Positions 1 to 35,382 of a stretch of 64,000 nt of DNA are shown here, one piece after another; the stretch's first letter is position 1; each line of letters opens with the position of its first letter. Source of the stretch: Deferribacterales bacterium (GTDB taxonomy: Bacteria > Chrysiogenota > Deferribacteres > Deferribacterales > Geovibrionaceae); NCBI GenBank assembly GCA_050253075.1, contig JBFWJS010000006.1, positions 128,001 through 192,000 on the forward strand. Direction: 5' to 3'. A model generated the notes under the pieces. That model was given only the letters and a program-made list of their open reading frames with translations, searched no databases and was not told the origin of the DNA. Made by a program: the position numbers and the translations under genes.

Positions 1-984
1 TATCTTTTCATGGTGTTGTGAGGCGTATTCGGCTATGTCCTTCATTTGGCGCACCTGAGAGAGTATCATGTTTGTGTAATAAGAATGACTGCGGATGTAT
101 GCCAGCTCTTTATCGTCCAGCTTCCCGTTCTTTTCCAGTATTTCGTTCGGCACTATCAGCTTGCCTATGTCGTGCAGGTTGCCCGCTATGGACAGCTCAG
201 AGCACTTATGCTCGCCGTAATTCATCATGTATCCCAACAGCTTTGCCACATCGGAAACGCCTCGGGAGTGGGAAGCCGTGAATCTGCTTTTAAAATCTAT
301 CACCAGCGACACCAGCTTTGTAAAATCCTCTATCTCCTTTATGCTCATAGAGCGCTTATCGGTATTGATGTATTCATGTTCGCTGAAAAGCTGATTGAAT
401 GATGTGCTGAGCCAGAAGGATTCTTTATCCTGCAGAGACCTGAAAGCCTCCACAGCGGCAGGTGCAAATACAGAACCTATCTTTTCGGCTATGTGGTCTA
501 TTATATTGCCCCTCTGGAGCAGGATGTGCTGGTTCTGCTTTACGAGAACGTCCACCCTGTCTGCCAGATGTATTATATAGCTGGCTATCGGTATCGGCTC
601 GCCTATGTAGCCCATATTTGTGCCGTGCTGCCAGTATTCATGATGATAAAGGATGATCTTTGCTATTTTGCGGAAAGGCTTGTAATTGCGCAGGAGCAGA
701 TACCCCACAAGGCAATGCTTATACGGATTTTCCACGTCAAATTGGATGAGCTGTTCCTTTTCCTGAATGGTGAGCGGTGCCGCACCTATATCATGCAGAA
801 GCCCCGCCAGATATATCTCCTGAAGGACATCCTCAGACAGCCCCATTGCTCTGCCTATTTCTCTCGACAATACTGCTACACGTTTGTTATGCCCTGCGAC
901 CACAGGGTTGACCAGCTCGATGGCTGTTGAAAGGCACTCGACCAGCTGTCCTATTGATATACGGTAAATGTATGCATCTTTCAT
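1..984 (-). CDS. Tandem HD / HD-GYP domain phosphodiesterase (runs off the window start)
   Basis: Not in the ORF track. Read by hand from ATG at 984: MKDAYIYRISIGQLVECLS..GHNKRVA..AGLLHDIG..HHE..HLADRVD..TASHSRGVS..AGNLHDIGKLIVPNEILEKTGKL..QHHEKI, open to base 1. Confidence 0.85.
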   Translation of the reverse strand, partial: MKDAYIYRISIGQLVECLSTAIELVNPVVAGHNKRVAVLSREIGRAMGLSEDVLQEIYLAGLLHDIGAAPLTIQEKEQLIQFDVENPYKHCLVGYLLLRNYKPFRKIAKIILYHHEYWQHGTNMGYIGEPIPIASYIIHLADRVDVLVKQNQHILLQRGNIIDHIAEKIGSVFAPAAVEAFRSLQDKESFWLSTSFNQLFSEHEYINTDKRSMSIKEIEDFTKLVSLVIDFKSRFTASHSRGVSDVAKLLGYMMNYGEHKCSELSIAGNLHDIGKLIVPNEILEKNGKLDDKELAYIRSHSYYTNMILSQVRQMKDIAEYASQHHEKI

Positions 985-24123: not shown

Positions 24124-25593
24124 ATGGAACAACATCGTCTGGACAAACTGGAAAAGATAAAAGCACAGAACAAACAACCTTATGTAAATTTTCATAAAAA
24201 AGAGCACGATATCATTGATGTCGTTGAGAAATATAAAGACGTCGAAAAAGATGCCCTCCCCGAGCAGTCTGTTATTTTTGATGTGGCAGGACGTATCATG
24301 GCACTGCGCGAATTCGGTAAAGCCGCATTCATGACGATAAAAGACCGCACAGAGAGCATTCAGGTCTATGTGAAAAAAGGTGAGATATCCGACGAAGACC
24401 ACGAAATTTTTAAAACTTCCGACGTCGGCGACGTTGTCGGCATCAAAGGATTCCTCTTTAAAACTAAGACAGGCGAGCTCACACTCTGTGCCACAGAGTA
24501 TAAGATGCTCACAAAAGCTCTGCGTGACCTTCCCGAAAAATTTCACGGTCTCACAGACGTTGAAAAGAGATACCGTCAGAGATATGTAGACCTCATCGTG
24601 AACGAAGAGGTTAAAGATACTTTCCGCAAGAGAAGCCAGATAATCCAGCAGGTGCGCCAGTTCTTCATCAGCAAGGACTTCCTCGAGGTGGAAACACCTA
24701 TGATGCACCCTATCGTGGGCGGCGCTACGGCTAAACCTTTCGAAACACACCACAACGCCCTCGACATGCCCCTCTATCTGAGGATCGCACCGGAGCTCTA
24801 CCTTAAAAGGCTCGTTATCGGCGGTATGGAGCGTGTATTCGAAGTGAACAGAAACTTCCGTAACGAAGGTCTCTCCACACGCCACAACCCTGAGTTCACC
24901 ATGATAGAATGGTACAACGCATACAACGACTATCACGGTCTTATGGATCAGATAGAAGAGATGATATGCGGCATATCCGAAAAAGTGAACGGAAGCCTTA
25001 AGGTAAACTTCAGAGACAAAGAAGTAGACCTCACACGCCCGTGGAAACGTGTGACAATGAACGATGCTATTACTACAATGACAGATGTAACACCCGACCA
25101 GATAGCCGACAGAGATGCCGCAGCAGCTACTGCAAAAAAATACGGTATTCATGTTGATAAAAACTGGGGAAAGGGTAAGATTGTTATGGAAATCTTTGAA
25201 GAACTGTGCGAGCACAATTTATTCAACCCTACATTCATCATTGATTATCCTAAAGAGGTTTCTCCACTGGCGAAATCTAAGGCAGACGACCCTGAAACCA
25301 CGGAACGCTTTGAGCTGTTCGTCGGCGGTTTCGAGTTGGCGAACGGATTTAACGAGCTTAACGATCCGATGGATCAGAAAGAGCGTTTTGAAAAACAGGT
25401 CGCAGCGAAAGAGGCAGGAGACGAAGAAGCAGGCATGATGGACCTCGACTACATCAGAGCCCTTGAATACGGTCTTCCACCTACAGCAGGCGCAGGACTT
25501 GGCATAGACAGGCTTGTCATGCTGATGACAGACAGCCAGTCCATCAGAGACGTAATACTCTTTCCACATATGAGGCCGGAAGATATTGATTAA
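24124..25593 (+). CDS. lysS: Lysine--tRNA ligase (class II)
   Basis: RYRQRY, LRIAPELYLKRL, FRNEG, HNPEF, GIDRL. Confidence 0.98.
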   Translation: MEQHRLDKLEKIKAQNKQPYVNFHKKEHDIIDVVEKYKDVEKDALPEQSVIFDVAGRIMALREFGKAAFMTIKDRTESIQVYVKKGEISDEDHEIFKTSDVGDVVGIKGFLFKTKTGELTLCATEYKMLTKALRDLPEKFHGLTDVEKRYRQRYVDLIVNEEVKDTFRKRSQIIQQVRQFFISKDFLEVETPMMHPIVGGATAKPFETHHNALDMPLYLRIAPELYLKRLVIGGMERVFEVNRNFRNEGLSTRHNPEFTMIEWYNAYNDYHGLMDQIEEMICGISEKVNGSLKVNFRDKEVDLTRPWKRVTMNDAITTMTDVTPDQIADRDAAAATAKKYGIHVDKNWGKGKIVMEIFEELCEHNLFNPTFIIDYPKEVSPLAKSKADDPETTERFELFVGGFELANGFNELNDPMDQKERFEKQVAAKEAGDEEAGMMDLDYIRALEYGLPPTAGAGLGIDRLVMLMTDSQSIRDVILFPHMRPEDID

Positions 25594-26527
25594 CACAAAG
25601 GTATTTGCTAGGGCTAAAACAGAAGACACCAGACAGCACATATCTTCTCTTTTCTCCGATGTAGAGTTCGTCGGCACCGAAGAACTCCTCACCATGGAAA
25701 AAGAGCTGATCATCTACGAAGTTATGGGGGAATGTACCGCTGAGGAGCTGAGGGAGCTGCTCGGTACTGAGAATTTTTTCCTTTTTATTTCTGATGAGTG
25801 CCACGACAATCTTTTGCTGGAGATATCCAGAGACTATTACTTTGCCTTCTGTCTGAAGGCTGACCCTATCAATGAGATAAAGATAAGATTTAACTCTCTT
25901 ATCAAACATAAAGAGCTGACAATAGCACTGGAAGAAAAGAATGAAGAGATGGAATCCACCATCTTTGAGCTCGCTTTCGCATCCACAAACGTGCTCGAGC
26001 AGAATGAATTCCTCGAGCAGATGGCGAAGAAAGACGGGCTCACCATGCTTTTCAACCACTCCTATTTCAAAGATAAACTGAAAGACGAAATGGTACGCTC
26101 GAAGCGTTATAACAACTGCTTCACCGTTGCCATTTTCGACCTCGATTTCTTTAAAAAGGTGAATGACCAGTACGGACACGTCAAAGGCGACGAAGTGCTG
26201 AAAGCATTTGCCAACATCATCAAAGAAACAGTTAGAAACACAGACATAGCAGCCAGATACGGCGGAGAGGAATTCGCCGTTCTCTTCACAGAGACAGACC
26301 TCGAAGATACCATAAGCGTGGTAGACCGCATCAGAGACAGGCTGAGCAATACTATCTTCTCCAGCGAGACAGAGTGCTTCAAAGTCACATTCAGCGCAGG
26401 CGTCACTTCCTATGACAAATCATACAAAGACGCCGAATATATGGTTAACGTCGCCGACAAGGCTCTCTACGTCAGTAAGACCGAAGGGCGTAACCGCACC
26501 ACCATCCTCACCGCCGACGACCTATAG
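25586..26527 (+). CDS. Cytoplasmic diguanylate cyclase (degenerate REC-like N-terminus and coiled coil)
   Basis: DGLT, DLDFFKKVND, RNTD I-site, GGEEF; overlaps the lysS end. Confidence 0.9.
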   Translation: MINTKVFARAKTEDTRQHISSLFSDVEFVGTEELLTMEKELIIYEVMGECTAEELRELLGTENFFLFISDECHDNLLLEISRDYYFAFCLKADPINEIKIRFNSLIKHKELTIALEEKNEEMESTIFELAFASTNVLEQNEFLEQMAKKDGLTMLFNHSYFKDKLKDEMVRSKRYNNCFTVAIFDLDFFKKVNDQYGHVKGDEVLKAFANIIKETVRNTDIAARYGGEEFAVLFTETDLEDTISVVDRIRDRLSNTIFSSETECFKVTFSAGVTSYDKSYKDAEYMVNVADKALYVSKTEGRNRTTILTADDL

Positions 26528-26562
26528 TCGGTCAGCACCGACAGGCCAATCACAAACTCCAG

Positions 26563-27505
26563 CGTCATTGCGAGGAGCGTAGCGACGCGGCAATCCTAGC
26601 CCTAACACAAACTGTCATCCTGAATGAAATGAAGGATCTGTGCATGTCAGATTCTCCGCCTGTGGCTCAGAATGACTACCAAATATACGTCATTGCGAGG
26701 AGCGTAGCGACGTGGCAATCCTATCTCTAAATACAAACTGTCATCCTGAATGAAATGAAGGATCTGTATATTTCAGATTCTTCGCCCGTGGCTCAGAATG
26801 ACTACACATCATATGTCATTGCGAACGCAGTGAAGCAATCCTAGCCCTAAATATAAACTGTCATCCTGAATGGAATTAAAGATCTGTACATTTCAGATTC
26901 TTTGCCCGTGGCTCAGAATGACTACCAAATATACGTCATTGCGAGGAGCGTAGCGACGTGGCAATCCTAGCCCTATATATAAACCGTCATACTGAATGAA
27001 ATGAAGGATCTGTACATTTCAGATTCTTCGCCCTTGGCTCAGAATGACTACCAAATATACGTCATTGCAAACGCAGTGAAGCAATCCTATCTCTAAATAC
27101 AAACTGTCATCCTGAATGAAATGAAGGATCTGTACATTTCAGATTCTTCGCCCGTGGCTCAGAATGACTACACATCATATGTCATTGCGAACACAGTGAA
27201 GCAATCCTAGCCCTAAATATAAACTGTCATCCTGAATGAAATGAAGGATCTGTACATTTCAGATTCTTCGCCCTTGGCTCAGAATCACGAGTACGCACAT
27301 TAATAGGAATCCTAAGATTGCTTCGTCATTCCACTCCTCGCAATGACCTTGAATTTAGCGTCATTGCGAACGCAGTGAAGCAATCCTATCTCTAAATACA
27401 AACTGTCATCCTGAATGAAATGAAGGATCTGTGCAGTTCAGATTCTTCGCCCTTGGCTCAGAATGACTACCAAATATACGTCATTGCAAACGCTGTGACT
27501 GCAAT
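26563..27505. repeat. Tandem array of GTC-tagged palindromic (REP-like) repeats: 7 A-B-C units, 1 inverted A and a partial 8th A
   Basis: A copies start at 26564, 26689, 26815, 26935, 27061, 27181, 27360 and 27480. B = GTCATCCTGAATGAAATGAAGGATCT. C = AGATTCTTCGCCCKTGGCTCAGAATGAC (inverted). Inverted A at 27315-27347. Confidence 0.95.
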
Positions 27506-27900
27506 TATGATTTTATGAATTTAAGATGTACTTTGCGTGTGCGGGGGCCGTCGAATTCACAGAAATATATACCCTGCCAGGTGCCGAGCACCATATTTCC
27601 GTTTTCCACTATAATAGTTTCCGAACAGCCGATGAGAGATGATTTTATATGACTGTCAGAGTTCCCCTCAGCGTGGCGGAACTCTGACAGATTTGGTATT
27701 AACTTTGAAAGAAATGAGTTCATATCCCTTTGCACATCAGGGTCGGCGTTTTCATTTATCGTGACGGCGGATGTGGTATGCGGTGTGTAAACCACCAGAA
27801 TACCGTCCTGCCAGCCGTTTGCCCTGAGCACAGCCTGCACATCCCCCGTGATCTCCACAAAGGCGCACCGTGTGCCTGTCCTTACGGATATGGTCTCCAT
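27505..27900 (-). CDS. yjbQ: YjbQ/UPF0047 family protein
   Basis: PHTTS..INENADPDV, HAEGNSDSHIKS, LGTWQGIYFCEFDGPR. Confidence 0.92.
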   Translation of the reverse strand: METISVRTGTRCAFVEITGDVQAVLRANGWQDGILVVYTPHTTSAVTINENADPDVQRDMNSFLSKLIPNLSEFRHAEGNSDSHIKSSLIGCSETIIVENGNMVLGTWQGIYFCEFDGPRTRKVHLKFIKS

Positions 27901-27904
27901 ATTA

Positions 27905-29530
27905 TTAGAGAGTGATAACCTTCGCCTCTATCATTCCGTCGAGAGCGAGGATCTCTTCGAGAACACCCGCAGGAACTTTTCCGTCGATGCGTACGAAAGC
28001 AACTGCATCGTCGCCCTTCTGATCTCTGGAAAGGTCGAAATCTGCGATGTTCACATTGTTATTTCCGAGGATAGTACCCACTTTACCGATCATGCCCGGT
28101 TTGTCCTGGTTGTTGAAGTAAAGGAATGTACCGTCGGCGATAAGGTCTGTGTAGTACTTATCATAGATAAGGAGTCTGCCTGTGTTATCGGCGAAGACTG
28201 TACCTGCGTAGACCTTCTCTTCTTTATCTGTTTTAACTTTGATAACCACAAGGTCGTTGAATTTGCCGAAGTGAGCTGCTTTTGTCTCGACTATGTCGAT
28301 ATTGCGCTCTTTAGCCACGTATGGAGCATTGATGAAGGATACTGTCTCCTTCACTGCCACTTCCATAAAGCCTTTCAGACCTGCGATGGTAAACGGCTGA
28401 AAGTTAAAAGGAGTGTCGAATGTACGCTCGCCGAAGTCTTCCTCAAACTTCTGTCCGACCATAGCGACCTCGATGGATTCCGCCCTGCCTTTTGTGAGCT
28501 GTGCAGCCATGTGGCCCATGCTCTCGAGGAGCTCGAAGTATCTCTGCATCTCTTCAGGAAGCTGTGTCTTCATGAATGGGATGTTCACGGCGTTTTTGTA
28601 TGATCTGCCGTGGAGAGCGTTTTTAACCTGCTCTGCGATGAGAACGGCAACGCCGTACTGACCTTCGTGAGTGTTTGCGCCGATGTGCGGTGTAACATAA
28701 ATGTTGTCCACTTCGAAGAATGGATGGTTCACAGGGGGCTCGGCAACGAAAACATCGAGACCCGCAGCATGAACCTTACCAGATTTACATGCTTCCACAA
28801 GGTCGAGCTCGTTCACGATACCGCCGCGTGCGCAGTTGATGATGACAACACCGTCTTTCATCTTTGCTATTTCGTCTTTTGTTATCATATTTTTTGTCTC
28901 GTCTGTGAGAGGAGTGTGGAATGTGACAACGTCAGCCTGAGCCAGTGCTTCTTCGAGCGTTTCGCAAAGCTCAACGCCGAGTGCTTCTGCTCTGGATTTT
29001 TTGATGTATGGATCGTAAGCAACAACCCTCATGTCGAAGGCTCTGCATCTTTTCGCAACGTTTCCGCCGATACGGCCAAGACCGATAACGGCGAGTGTTT
29101 TCTGATAAAGCTGGATACCCATGAAGCGCTTTCTGTCCCATTCACCTGCCTTTGTAGACTGGTTTGCAGCGGGGAGCTTACGCACGACAGACAGCATCAT
29201 AGCCATTGTCAGCTCGCAGGCAGCGAGAGTGTTGCCCGTGGGAGCGTTCATAACGATGATACCTTTCATACTGGCAGCTTCGATATCGACATTGTCGAGA
29301 CCAACGCCCGCACGTCCGATTATCTTGAGTTTTCCAGGGTTTTCGATAAGGTCAGGAGTAACAGTTGTTCCGCTTCTGGTGATGATAGCGTCGTAGTTAC
29401 CGATGATCTTCTTCAGCTCAGGATTTTTGATCCCTGCCTGAATATCGACCTCTATATCCTTGTCGTCTTTGAGGATATTCACACCGTCCTGAGAGATGTG
29501 ATCAGTGATGAGAACTTTATACTTGGCCAT
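27905..29530 (-). CDS. serA: D-3-phosphoglycerate dehydrogenase (long form with ACT domain)
   Basis: GRAGVGLDN, GLGRIG, NCARGG, TPHIGA, C-terminal DKPGMIG ACT. Confidence 0.95.
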   Translation of the reverse strand: MAKYKVLITDHISQDGVNILKDDKDIEVDIQAGIKNPELKKIIGNYDAIITRSGTTVTPDLIENPGKLKIIGRAGVGLDNVDIEAASMKGIIVMNAPTGNTLAACELTMAMMLSVVRKLPAANQSTKAGEWDRKRFMGIQLYQKTLAVIGLGRIGGNVAKRCRAFDMRVVAYDPYIKKSRAEALGVELCETLEEALAQADVVTFHTPLTDETKNMITKDEIAKMKDGVVIINCARGGIVNELDLVEACKSGKVHAAGLDVFVAEPPVNHPFFEVDNIYVTPHIGANTHEGQYGVAVLIAEQVKNALHGRSYKNAVNIPFMKTQLPEEMQRYFELLESMGHMAAQLTKGRAESIEVAMVGQKFEEDFGERTFDTPFNFQPFTIAGLKGFMEVAVKETVSFINAPYVAKERNIDIVETKAAHFGKFNDLVVIKVKTDKEEKVYAGTVFADNTGRLLIYDKYYTDLIADGTFLYFNNQDKPGMIGKVGTILGNNNVNIADFDLSRDQKGDDAVAFVRIDGKVPAGVLEEILALDGMIEAKVITL

Positions 29531-29846
29531 TAAGTTAACCTCGATAAAATATACATATATGTGTTAGAAGAGAACAGATAATAGCAAAACAGATATTATT
29601 TGACAAGCCAAAACATACTAAAATAATGGGAATTGAACCTATTCTCTGCATTGGCTTATTCTGCCGCACAGACAACGCCCGGAGAGTCTGATAGATAACA
29701 TAAAATATTATTAAAAAAGATATTAATACCAACTTTAGCTCATATTAAAAACCATTTCAAAGTTAATTTTGTAAAACAACTTGACAGCAAACGGTTTTTA
29801 CTGCTTGAATACATGAATATATTATACATTTATTGAGGTGAAGCAG

Positions 29847-30860
29847 ATGGCTTTTAATGACCTTTTACTCAGAACTATGAACGGTGAAAAAACTGACAGA
29901 CCTCCGGTATGGTTTATGCGTCAGGCCGGAAGATACATGGAAGAATACAGAGAAGTACGCAGCAAGGTTTCCTTCCTTGAGCTTTGCAAATCCCCGGAGC
30001 TTTGCACAGAAGTTACACTGCAGCCGATCAGAGCTTTCGGCTTTGACAACGCTATCCTCTTCTCAGATATCCTCATCCCTATCGAGCCTATGGGTGTCGA
30101 TCTCGACTTTAACCCTGCTCCTGTCATATCAAATCCTATCCGCACACTTGCGGATGCAGATAAACTTCGCGAGATAGACCCTGCGAAGGACGTTCCTTTC
30201 GTGCTTGAGACAGTGAAAATGCTCGTAAAGGCTCTTGATGTGCCTCTTATCGGTTTCTCAGGCGCACCTTTCACACTCGCCTGTTACATGGTAGAGGGTA
30301 AAGGTTCTAAAAACTATGAATATATCAAAACTATGATGCACGCAGACCCTACAACATACAGAGTAATGATGGAGAAGCTCGCAAACTCTACCCTGAAGTA
30401 CCTTCAGGCACAGATAGACAGCGGTGCTCACGTCGTTCAGATGTTTGACACATGGGCTGGCGTCGTTTCTAAATATGACTATGAGAAATTCATATTCCCA
30501 TACGTTGAATACATCGCAAACAACCTTAAAGGTGCTCCGCTCATCTATTTCGCAAAAGACAGCTTCAGCTTCTATGACATCATAGGAAAGCTGAAATGTG
30601 CAGGAATGGGTGTAGACTGGAAAACAACTCTCGCAGACGCAGACGAAAGACTCGGCAAGGGCAAATTTGTCCTTCAGGGTAACTTCGACCCTGTTCAGCT
30701 CTTCGGTAGCAAAGAATCCATCAAGGAAACAGCCGAAAAGATCCTCGCAGAGGGTAAAGACCTTAAAGGTCATATCTTTAACCTCGGACACGGTATCCTC
30801 CCTCCTACTCCTAGAGAGAATGTGGACTACCTTGTTAAGGTCGTTAAAGGGGAAGCATGA
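29847..30860 (+). CDS. hemE: Uroporphyrinogen decarboxylase
   Basis: PVWFMRQAGR, FSDIL, GAPFTLA, NLGHGI. Confidence 0.97.
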   Translation: MAFNDLLLRTMNGEKTDRPPVWFMRQAGRYMEEYREVRSKVSFLELCKSPELCTEVTLQPIRAFGFDNAILFSDILIPIEPMGVDLDFNPAPVISNPIRTLADADKLREIDPAKDVPFVLETVKMLVKALDVPLIGFSGAPFTLACYMVEGKGSKNYEYIKTMMHADPTTYRVMMEKLANSTLKYLQAQIDSGAHVVQMFDTWAGVVSKYDYEKFIFPYVEYIANNLKGAPLIYFAKDSFSFYDIIGKLKCAGMGVDWKTTLADADERLGKGKFVLQGNFDPVQLFGSKESIKETAEKILAEGKDLKGHIFNLGHGILPPTPRENVDYLVKVVKGEA

Positions 30861-31804
30861 AAAAAGACCTGCTTTATGTGATGTATATGGGCGGTCCTGA
30901 TAGTATCGAAGGGATAGAGGAGTTCCTCTTTAATCTCTTTTCGGACCGCACCATCATCGACTTTCACATCGGCGGCACACTCCAGACATTCATAGCGAAA
31001 AAGATAGCTAAAAAACGCTCCGTTAAAGTTGCGCCCGAATATGAAAAGATAGGCGGACGCTCTCCGCAGCTCCCCTACCTTCAGGCTATTCTGGAAAAGA
31101 TAAAGCCGCTCTACCTCACTGAAACAGGGCGTGAGCTCGTCACCGATATCGGTATGTGCTATTACCATCCGTACATCGAGGACTCCATACAGAAGCATAA
31201 CGGTGCAGACTATGAAAATATCATAGTCACCAGCATGTATCCGCAGTATTCATATACCACCAGCGGTGTGTGCTTCGACAGATTTGCAAAGGTGCAGAAG
31301 CTCGTTAAAGAACCTAAGATCATCAAAGAATGGTACCGTAACGAAGCATATAATAAATGTATCTCAGACAGGATACTCAGAGCAGCGGAAAAGCTGGGCA
31401 AGGACATAACCGACTGCCACGTGGTATTCTCTGCGCATTCCCTCCCCGAATACACCGTTAAAAAAGGCGACGTTTACACCATGCAGATAAACGAGCAGGT
31501 GAAAAAGCTCGTCAGCATGACACACCCGAAAACATATAACCTCGCATACCAGAGCCGTACAGGCCCCGTGAAATGGGTCGGTCCATACACGGATAAAGAG
31601 CTCGAAAGGCTCACGGCAGAGCGTGTGGATAACATCATCGTCGTGCCTATATCGTTTGTATCCGACCACATCGAGACTCTGATAGAGCTGGACGAGCAGT
31701 ATATGCCGCAGGTGCGTGAGGCAGGGCTGAATATCGTCCGCATCGAAAGCCTGAACGACTCAGACGACTTTGCCGAGGCATTCTTAAATATAATATCCGC
31801 ATAA
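30857..31804 (+). CDS. hemH: Ferrochelatase
   Basis: MGGP, YPQYS, FSAHSLP, YQSR..W.GP, DHIETL.ELD. Confidence 0.93.
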   Translation: MKKDLLYVMYMGGPDSIEGIEEFLFNLFSDRTIIDFHIGGTLQTFIAKKIAKKRSVKVAPEYEKIGGRSPQLPYLQAILEKIKPLYLTETGRELVTDIGMCYYHPYIEDSIQKHNGADYENIIVTSMYPQYSYTTSGVCFDRFAKVQKLVKEPKIIKEWYRNEAYNKCISDRILRAAEKLGKDITDCHVVFSAHSLPEYTVKKGDVYTMQINEQVKKLVSMTHPKTYNLAYQSRTGPVKWVGPYTDKELERLTAERVDNIIVVPISFVSDHIETLIELDEQYMPQVREAGLNIVRIESLNDSDDFAEAFLNIISA

Positions 31805-31806
31805 CA

Positions 31807-31841
31807 GTCATCATGAGGAGTGATAACGACGTGATGATCTC
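31807..31841 (+). repeat. GTC-tagged REP-like hairpin, left end of the GIY-YIG cassette
   Basis: GTC-ATCAT-GAGGAGTGATAACGACGTG-ATGAT-CTC; same loop core as array type A. Confidence 0.85.
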
Positions 31842-31856
31842 AGACTAGGCACACTT

Positions 31857-32144
31857 ATGAGAAACGGTTATGTTTACATAATAACTAATTCAAACAACTC
31901 AACTCTTTACGTTGGTGTAACTTCTAATATCAAAAAGAGAATATACGAGCACAAACAGAAATTTATTGACGGTTTCTCTAAAAAATATAACCTTACAAAG
32001 CTTGTTTATTTTGAATGTTTTGATAATATTACAGATGCTTTGTGCCGAGAAAAACAACTCAAAGCATATAAACGAGCTAAAAAACAAGAGATAGTAAACT
32101 CTCTTAATCCTGAGTGGAAAGATTTATACGAAGGTATTCTATAA
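31857..32144 (+). CDS. Stand-alone GIY-YIG nuclease
   Basis: GYVY..LYVGVT..R..EH..REK..NPEW; 84 of 288 bases are G+C (29%) by hand count. Confidence 0.92.
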   Translation: MRNGYVYIITNSNNSTLYVGVTSNIKKRIYEHKQKFIDGFSKKYNLTKLVYFECFDNITDALCREKQLKAYKRAKKQEIVNSLNPEWKDLYEGIL

Positions 32145-32154
32145 TCTAAATGCT

Positions 32155-32189
32155 GAGACTCTCACGGTCGCCAGCTCCCTCAGAGTGAC
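32155..32189 (-). repeat. GTC-tagged REP-like hairpin, right end of the GIY-YIG cassette
   Basis: Reverse complement GTC-ACTCT-GAGGGAGCTGGCGACCGTG-AGAGT-CTC. Confidence 0.85.
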
Positions 32190-32214
32190 AAATTATATTA
32201 TACGGGTAACAACA

Positions 32215-33063
32215 TTGGAAAAATTCAAAACATTTTTAAGCATGATAAAAGTGGAGCACACCCTTTTCGCCCTCCCCTTTGCCTTCACAGGCATGTTTTT
32301 AGCGGCGAGAGGCATCCCTTCGCTCTCTACTATATTCTGGATAGTCATAGCCGTTCTGGGTGCCAGAAGCGGTGCTATGGGATTTAACCGTGTGGCGGAC
32401 GCTAAGATCGACGCACGAAACCCCAGAACAGAAAACCGTGACATCCCCGCAGGGCGCATATCCGTGAATGAAGCTACGCTGTATGTGGTGATATCCTTCG
32501 CCGTATACTTCTTCGCCGCTTATATGCTGAATCCGCTCTGTTTCTATCTCTCTCCCGTTCCATTTGCCGTATTCATACTATATTCATATACAAAGCGTTT
32601 CACGTTTCTCTGCCACATTGTGCTAGGCGTTGCTCTCGGCATAGCCCCCATCGGCGCATGGGCAGCCGTCACAGGCTCGCTGAACCTCGGCATAGTTTTA
32701 CTCGGCATAGCCGTTCTTTTCTGGGTTTCAGGCTTTGATATAGTATACGCATGTCAGGATATCGACTTCGACAGAGAAGAAGGCCTGTTCTCCATCCCCA
32801 GATACCTCGGGCTGAGAAATTCGCTGAACCTCGCAAGGGTATTTCACATCATATCCTTCCTGATATTCCTATACACATGGGTATATTTCGACCTTGGCAT
32901 TATATATCTGGCGGGAATACTGCTCACGGGCGGATTCATGGTTTATCAGCACTCCATAATAAAACCCGAGGATCTCAGCAGGCTCGACATGGCATTTTTC
33001 AATCTAAATGCATATATTAGTCTGAGCATTTGCGCTTTCACATTTTTAGACCTTGTAATATGA
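32215..33063 (+). CDS. mqnP: UbiA-family polyprenyltransferase (MqnP-like, futalosine menaquinone pathway)
   Basis: IKVEHTLFALPF, NRVADAKIDARNPRT, GFDIVYACQD; probable TTG start at 32215 (the track's GTG lies inside the repeat). Confidence 0.8.
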   Translation: MEKFKTFLSMIKVEHTLFALPFAFTGMFLAARGIPSLSTIFWIVIAVLGARSGAMGFNRVADAKIDARNPRTENRDIPAGRISVNEATLYVVISFAVYFFAAYMLNPLCFYLSPVPFAVFILYSYTKRFTFLCHIVLGVALGIAPIGAWAAVTGSLNLGIVLLGIAVLFWVSGFDIVYACQDIDFDREEGLFSIPRYLGLRNSLNLARVFHIISFLIFLYTWVYFDLGIIYLAGILLTGGFMVYQHSIIKPEDLSRLDMAFFNLNAYISLSICAFTFLDLVI

Positions 33064-34855: not shown

Positions 34856-35187
34856 CAGAGCGTACTAAAACCTGAGTTTTATTTTTTCGTTCTGTATGAA
34901 TTACTATTTTGAATTATTATTTTCATTTTTTATACCCGCAGTAAATTTGTTTTAAATTTTACTAAAATATCTTTTCGCCCTTAAGAAACATTAAAAATTA
35001 ACATCTTTAAACGTCTCATTTACAAACCTGTCAAATTAAAATTATTAGTAAATTTTTGTCTATTTTGTTTATTATTTATAAATTGATTTTGTTAATTTTA
35101 TATAACATTGTTATGCATATATAAGATTGTATACAGTATACGCTAAAAAATCTTCGCTAGTACCTGATTTTATTGTGTTTTTTACTG

Positions 35188-35216: not shown

Positions 35217-35382
35217 TTAATCAGATTAGATTTACATTTACCAAAAAAATTCTCTTATTAGTAAACAGAGAAGCAGCGGTAAAACCAGAACAGGTTAACT
35301 TAGAACGCATAATTAAAAAGGAGGTGTATAATTAAACGTTCCGAGAAGTTCCTGTTCGATATCTTAAGTGAGGTGTAATCTT

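Follow-up and report, generated by a model that had tools for sequence, protein, structure and literature searches.

The 940-base tandem array between a GGDEF diguanylate cyclase gene and a UPF0047/yjbQ gene in a Deferribacterales bacterium (contig JBFWJS010000006.1) is a recent BIME/NIME-like cluster of Ssn-associated CGTC-class hairpins, that is, a variant within a known repeat system. With a probability of about two in three, it is interpreted as a locally amplified mosaic of two tagged hairpin families, which flank Ssn-type GIY-YIG genes and are predicted to be the single-stranded targets of the encoded nucleases; unequal recombination between units is its likely mode of growth, with Ssn nicks as the probable trigger. 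The array mixes two hairpin families that elsewhere mostly pair within their own family. The window analysed was the whole stretch of 64,000 nucleotides (positions 128,001 to 192,000 of the contig), and positions below refer to it unless another contig is named.

Structure and neighbours of the array

Seven units of hairpins A, B and C were delimited (Table 1), with linkers of 17-18 bp (A-B), 9 bp (B-C) and 12 bp (C-A) and with periods, in order, of 125, 126, 120, 126, 120, 179 and 120 bp. The seven units of the preliminary description were thus recovered, and its period of 120-126 bp was found to have missed the sixth period of 179 bp, together with the inverted A and the truncated eighth A; the sixth period is longer because the inverted A is inserted there. 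Its placement of A and B on one strand and C on the other, with linkers of ~17 bp (A-B) and 9 bp (B-C), was confirmed by parsing, and its location of the array between convergent genes was borne out, the array lying between the two stops (26527 side and 27505 side). Hairpin A occurs in a long form of 33 nt and a short form of 27 nt, and B, 9 bp and C make up a heterodimer with its tags outward. The inverted A is able to pair with the first A, enclosing units 1-6. TRF returned a period of 120 with 5.7 copies (score 1007) and also a higher-order period of 246 bp. The tag motif was counted 21 times in the window against 4.2 expected, a count reached by none of 100 shuffles.

Table 1. Positions of the array, its hairpins, the neighbouring genes and the GIY-YIG cassette in the window.
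Feature	Position	Strand	Remarks
Whole array	26564..27504	.	seven A-B-C units, one inverted A and one truncated A
A-B-C units 1 to 7	start 26564, 26689, 26815, 26935, 27061, 27181, 27360		order per unit A(+)/B(+)/C(-)
Hairpin A of unit 1, long form	26564..26596	+	stem ATTGC/GCAAT; type flanking the C2 Ssn paralogue
Hairpin A, other long copies	start 26689, 26935	+	
Hairpin A, short copies	start 26815, 27061, 27181, 27360	+	
Hairpin B of unit 1	26614..26639	+	stem ATCCT/AGGAT
Hairpin B, other copies	start 26740, 26860, 26986, 27106, 27226, 27405	+	
Hairpin C of unit 1	26649..26676	-	stem ATTCT/AGAAT; every C 35 bp past the start of its B
C-to-next-A tag-to-tag junction	26677..26688	.	12 bp; recurs at every unit boundary
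Inverted A-type hairpin	27315..27347	-	between units 6 and 7; followed by a 12-bp tag-to-tag junction
Truncated eighth A	27480..27504	+	runs up to the yjbQ stop codon
Left neighbour, GGDEF diguanylate cyclase gene	25586..26527	+	PF00990, E 2.7e-43
Right neighbour, UPF0047/yjbQ gene	27505..27900	-	PF01894, E 1.2e-44
GIY-YIG gene, SsnA homologue	31857..32144	+	95 aa, single domain; PF01541, E 7e-16
Left hairpin of the GIY-YIG cassette	31807..31840	+	ATCAT stem
Right hairpin of the GIY-YIG cassette	32156..32189	-	ACTCT stem

The region, left unexplained by the open reading frames in the preliminary description, is non-coding, with no ORF of more than 33 aa inside the array. No terminator-like site was found in it, and an Rfam search of positions 25500-33000 gave no match at E <= 1. 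A CRISPR array was rejected, as entire units including their linkers are near-identical and hold no unique spacers. RNA folding of the array gave a z score of -7.05, with none of 20 shuffles folding as well; the ViennaRNA energies do not discriminate between a DNA and an RNA role and leave the bulge pairs unmodelled. Elsewhere in the window, two short AT-rich tandem repeats (24 and 19 bp, ~2 copies) at 35062-35140, upstream of the gene at 35368, are possibly regulator sites.

In contigs of run X1, which may be the source sample, four unit-specific junctions were covered with 0 mismatches at a depth of 378-483 against 466-482 in the flanks (about single copy); no read or contig spans the whole array, and the exact count of seven units is supported, not proven. 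Junction variants were seen in runs X3, X4 and X5. The comparison of unit number among strains proposed in the preliminary description is addressed by a reconstruction: for runs X4 and X5, the way the contigs overlap, together with the doubled depth of a shared B piece, was read as three units, and unit number therefore appears to differ among strains.

The hairpin family in the genome

The preliminary description had asked for a genome-wide count of the three hairpins, and this gave about 300 copies, so that the family is dispersed rather than local. In the 3.04-Mb genome, 292 copies with perfect stems were found by a structural scan, which gave 3, 7 and 11 in Markov controls. A stricter scan yielded at least 302 copies and found none in controls that were reversed and complemented; a degenerate pattern matched 345 times, and 9 times in its control. 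Above a stem of 5 bp lie a purine-rich bulge (GA opposite GA, GAA or GTG) and an inner hairpin that is variable; in the B/C hairpins the GA/GA bulge is confined to the tagged strand (115 vs 0). The covariation claimed for the hairpins held when head/tail pairs were collected without demanding complementarity: 90% of 266 pairs were fully cognate, whereas 500 shuffles gave 19% (maximum 27%), and 11 cognate stem variants occurred among the pairs, so that the stems covary. C or T preceded GTC in 75 of the 113 copies of A type and in 127 of the 189 of B/C type. Among the innermost loops, 76 GNA triloops were counted against 3 of the complementary TNC, besides 101 other triloops, which is only suggestive of a DNA mini-hairpin signature.

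Outside the array, 90 pairs have tags outward, against 11 with tags inward and 10 in tandem; the 90 comprise 60 of B/C with B/C, 26 of A with A and 4 mixed, within-family pairing thus accounting for 86. By inspection, the spacer lengths of tags-outward pairs across the genome cluster near 6-9, 16-22 and 25-31 bp, about one helical turn apart, and no target-site duplication flanking the dimers was evident by eye. According to crude gene calls, hairpin clusters are enriched in convergent gaps (49 of 172 clusters vs 155 of 1130 gaps), avoided in divergent gaps (8 of 172 vs 289 of 1130) and mostly intergenic, only 8 of 172 falling within gene calls.

A second hybrid array of A and B/C hairpins was found at G000:C3:84948-85666 (L153; G000 is the present genome), downstream of an ORF and ahead of a terminator-like hairpin. 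It has a period of 142-143 bp, with the unit C(+), 9 bp, B-variant(-), 40 bp, A(+), 11 bp, and holds a 100-N assembly gap. A mosaic family of ~200 bp, with roughly 15 copies in the genome (e.g., C1:32357, C2:261543, C6:123045), contains a terminator-like hairpin, a dimer of B, 26 bp and C, and a conserved right flank; these extra parts imply that the mobile unit exceeds the dimer.

Ssn-type GIY-YIG genes and their cassettes

The genome has three short GIY-YIG genes (~95-97 aa) and one long one, and all three short paralogues have tagged hairpins on both sides: the window gene lies in its own cassette (Table 1), the C1 paralogue (G000:C1:248292-248573) sits exactly between C and B, and the C2 paralogue sits between A-type hairpins. 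The comparator for homology was an NTS-flanked protein of N. gonorrhoeae, in place of the N. meningitidis protein; it showed 45% identity to the C1 paralogue (E 2e-19, database search) and 42% to the window protein (E 4e-23, small database). The gonococcal protein carries Y6, Y17 and E64, the positions mutated in PMC11893778, and the equivalent residues Y7, Y18 and E65 are shared by all 12 aligned proteins. An NCBIfam search with the three proteins gave just sub-threshold group I intron endonuclease matches for two of them, and a PDB search a single weak match to UPF0213 (E 0.003).

At 97 homologous loci (two of which are the same locus), a tagged hairpin lay within 200 bp of the gene in 84, and hairpin density fell from 5.8 per kb close to the gene to 0.21 per kb far from it. 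The likeness noted earlier between the B-C geometry and the pair around the GIY-YIG gene was upheld, a tags-outward pair being present at 46 of the 97 loci. Genomes with a detected Ssn had a median of 77 repeats (n=11, this genome included) and those without a median of 12.5 (n=30), the related genomes not being independent samples. Four of the 30 relatives without a detected Ssn still had more than 100 pattern matches (G002, G007, G009 and G038), which fits gene loss but is also compatible with another mobiliser. The Y1_Tnp profile (PF01797) had no match in the present genome, which is 99.9% complete, nor in G007 and G009; in the relatives it matched once in G002 and 17 times in G038. The 17 matches in G038 (contig C2; L038, L040-L052) were of equal score, to a 144-aa Y1 transposase, and all on one contig. 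The short GIY-YIG gene of G038 (L032), with no tagged hairpin within the 700 bases viewed, was left out of the Ssn counts. The ComEC and DprA genes of this genome were rejected as a sign of competence, since they are also present in 10 and 11 of 14 control genomes.

Some ssn loci are bracketed by direct repeats. At the C1 locus (L031, G000:C1:248224-248653) a two-hairpin B/C junction block is directly repeated on both sides, and the ssn genes of loci L029 and L067 likewise have a two-hairpin block directly repeated on each side, an arrangement suggestive of duplication of a gene-bearing unit or of its integration from a circle. One Ssn homologue (L017, G003) has an in-frame TAG and lies within a cluster of mixed hairpin types.

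Gene-less cassettes and orthologous sites in relatives

The B-C pair had been described as the empty form of the cassette around the window's GIY-YIG gene. It does correspond to a gene-less, dispersed dimer, with the 60 B/C dimers outside the array; judged from its stems, it is the gene-less form of the C1 cassette, on another contig, and not of the window gene, which has ATCAT/ACTCT hairpins. At the hemH-ubiA site of the window gene, the gene was absent in all five relatives examined. In the relative G003 the place of the gene is taken by a spacer of ~66 bp between hairpins of the same kind (ATCAT/ACTCT type); G010 carries an A-type pair that is unrelated, and the remaining three are free of hairpins. 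The element in G003 can be aligned with a family in the present genome, of which 16 copies were selected. Dimers of the family that occupies this site in G003 have a spacer of 63-66 bp with, at its centre, a small palindrome built from two tags (e.g., G000 C1:114873 and C6:2071; G003 in L147).

At the dgc-yjbQ site, no such hairpin was present in nine of ten same-family relatives having both flanking genes. The gap was shorter than 20 bp in seven of the ten, held a 254-aa gene and no hairpin in two, and held an A-A dimer in G002 whose spacer and flanks are unlike those of the window. The absence of the array from this site in relatives indicates that it is recent and local. The 254-aa gene, in G010 and G008 (L004:1840-2640, L005:1815-2605), encodes a putative DpnI-type restriction endonuclease, and the site seems to take up differing mobile DNA. 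A further array, of 93-94-bp dimers with junctions of 11-12 bp, was found in G025.

Junction length and residues 70-73

Tag-to-tag junctions were 12 bp at the five matched junctions of the array, and in four relatives 66 of the 75 junctions among the matches listed were 9-13 bp (search window 3-30). The other eight junctions in the genome were 6 to 25 bp, and the array on contig C3 has no such short junction (40 bp there). The narrow junctions could arise from the rejoining of two cut ends, or correspond to a single helical turn that suits a dimeric binder; 9-13 bp exceeds the 8 bp given by two joined Neisseria-type cut ends, by our arithmetic from the cut positions in PMC11893778.

In aligned Ssn proteins, the motif at residues 70-73 (window numbering) tracks the hairpin type: it is GGSR in the C2 paralogue and GWTR in the C1 paralogue, and Gly occupies residue 71 in 52 of the 58 proteins flanked by A and in none of the 18 flanked by B/C or NTS. 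In a second set of proteins, mostly picked via protein words from the C1 enzyme, 69 carry GWT; 59 of these have a called hairpin, which includes the B/C type in 58 and the A type in none. The four A-flanked proteins of that set have Gly (2), Ser (1) and Trp (1) at residue 71. The association could be explained by shared descent. In a tree of 96 Ssn proteins, built by a quick search and with 51 of 93 inner branches open, well-supported branches held one independent pair, and the independent-pairs test is unable to reach significance.

Comparison with known repeat systems

The Ssn nucleases (cd10448) and their NTS or Ssn-related motifs (SRM) were described by Chenal et al. (2025; PMC11893778). 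As reported there, SsnA binds the tagged strand of single-stranded DNA only, cuts just upstream of the tag, does not bind RNA and lowers transformation by repeat-bearing DNA; the parts of that paper on Ssn activity used here report binding and cutting, and no strand joining. Its authors remark on the likeness to REP/BIME systems and propose a domesticated mobile element; eight Deferribacterales genomes are given at 0-2-fold enrichment, three of them with a tblastn homologue. As in the Ssn/SRM system as set out there, the present genome has ~95-aa single-domain GIY-YIG genes with GTC-tagged flanking hairpins and a conserved C past the stem, hundreds of clustered intergenic copies, and retained catalytic residues (activity here being predicted). 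Unlike the Ssn systems in the published account, it has bulged stems and three coexisting paralogues with differing flanks. The published SRM pattern gave 12 unrelated matches over the genome and none among these hairpins, although it did match NTS-type flanks in L060 and L125, and matched at 5 of the 52 loci examined; by their predicted pairing, the hairpins form a bulged variant beyond the operational definition of the SRM.

With the CGTC REPs of Di Nocera et al. (2013; PMC3733652), as characterised in the sections used here, the hairpins share the unpaired tag, A-T first stem pairs and short tail (GTC-A...T-CY in the search definition), the prevalence of tags-outward heterodimers and the enrichment between tandem and convergent genes. 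They differ in that the base ahead of GTC is not conserved as C and that the loop and inner stem are highly variable. CGTC families 1-4 are given an 8-9-bp stem and a 4-5-nt loop in that paper; the short copies here, with a 5-bp stem, a bulge and an inner 2-3-bp stem, have a similar span, and the long copies differ. Deferribacterales names are absent from its main text.

The earlier comparison with REPIN/BIME elements applies to the form of the array and not to its partner, an Ssn-type nuclease, with no RAYT (Y1_Tnp not found in the genome). E. coli BIME-2 and atypical BIMEs, as portrayed by Ton-Hoang et al. (PMC3333891), likewise consist of tandem inverted heterodimers with linkers and chimeric units, with copies alike within a locus and strain-variable in number; BIMEs in that account have GTAG and a Y1 HUH transposase capable of strand joining, whereas none was found here and the tag is GTC. 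The NIME arrays of Bentley et al. (2007; PMC1797815) resemble the array, in the features outlined there, in their dRS3/NTS-class hairpins, AT-rich spacers and dynamic length at syntenic sites. According to the same source, NIME spacers are diverse RS elements of 19-214 bp, frequently close to genes for surface proteins. The present array has linkers of 9-18 bp and near-identical units, and is bordered by a GGDEF gene and yjbQ.

Origin of the array

In the favoured reading, both the cleavage of the hairpins and the mechanism of amplification are inferred. As with Neisseria SsnA, each paralogue would bind its own hairpin on the tagged strand when single-stranded and cut a few bases 5' of the tag. 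Tags-outward dimers would spread as non-autonomous units, and a B-C dimer may have inserted into or next to an A dimer, so producing an A-B-C unit that has tags at both ends; the ability of the first A and the inverted A to pair around units 1-6 suggests that the B-C dimer entered the A dimer before amplification. Host repair and crossing-over within shared hairpins would then have increased the number of units and reshuffled them. That units recombined is indicated by the A tail and by B, across each of which all four combinations of states are found. The array is most likely selfish or near-neutral DNA and, as a predicted side effect, would be cut on incoming single-stranded DNA.

An origin in which Ssn has no role, one A-B-C unit having been amplified purely by replication slippage and RecA-type unequal exchange, is unlikely but has to be taken seriously, as the recombinant units and the 246-bp higher-order repeat need homology alone, and four repeat-rich relatives lack a detected Ssn. 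Slippage, however, offers no reason for boundaries at narrow tag-to-tag junctions (mostly 9-13 bp among the matches listed), an argument weakened in turn by the 40-bp junction of the C3 array. That the array is kept as an RNA element, terminating or stabilising both convergent transcripts or giving ~120-nt RNAs, is improbable. REPs have been proposed to act at the RNA level (in the part of PMC3733652 used here), and the array folds well as RNA and belongs to a family enriched between convergent genes; but good folding is expected of any inverted repeat, nine of ten relatives are hairpin-free at the site (seven of these with a gap shorter than 20 bp), unit number is apparently strain-variable, the array holds no terminator-like site that could be found, and the account of SsnA in PMC11893778 reports no RNA binding.

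Movement by a RAYT or IS200-type Y1 transposase, as in a strict REPIN/BIME system, is very improbable: the tandem dimers, chimeric units and variable copy number do resemble BIME-2 and atypical BIMEs (as depicted in PMC3333891), but this explanation is largely refuted by the lack of a PF01797 match in the present genome, G007 and G009, the tag is GTC rather than GTAG, and CGTC repeats are reported in PMC3733652, within the text used here, as having no link with tyrosine transposases. A simple local minisatellite or an assembly artefact is hardly credible. Although no read or contig spans the array and the similar C3 array has a 100-N gap, about 300 copies of the modules, with compensatory changes, are found elsewhere, the units differ from one another, and unit-specific junctions were seen in run X1 and variants in X3, X4 and X5.

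Beyond amplification of a hairpin mosaic probably begun by Ssn nicks, a bolder proposal is offered as a tentative possibility: Ssn nucleases might be the missing mobilisers of CGTC REPs and have a readable specificity code, with Gly71 (GGSR) targeting ATTGC and Trp (GWTR) targeting ATTCT/ATCCT. Cuts 5-6 nt 5' of the tag, followed by host rejoining, would give the 9-13-bp junctions, and two paralogues would jointly build A-B-C units that amplify as a block, without a strand-transfer enzyme.

Significance

The array itself is an ordinary repeat cluster, and its value lies in its use as a test system, one genome offering three Ssn paralogues with different hairpins, filled and empty cassette forms across one orthologous site, and hybrid arrays. 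Two questions become testable with it: how CGTC repeats spread in the absence of a transposase (an issue from PMC3733652) and what determines Ssn specificity (an issue from PMC11893778, both as far as treated in the parts used here). To these subjects the present analysis adds, from comparison of sequences, putative bulged hairpins that escape the SRM pattern, a motif at residues 70-73 that appears to track hairpin type, and an apparent clustering of junctions at 9-13 bp. New Ssn/target pairs could widen the set of single-strand cutting tools. Since the bulged subtype is missed by the SRM pattern, repeat loads are probably undercounted in lineages that carry it.
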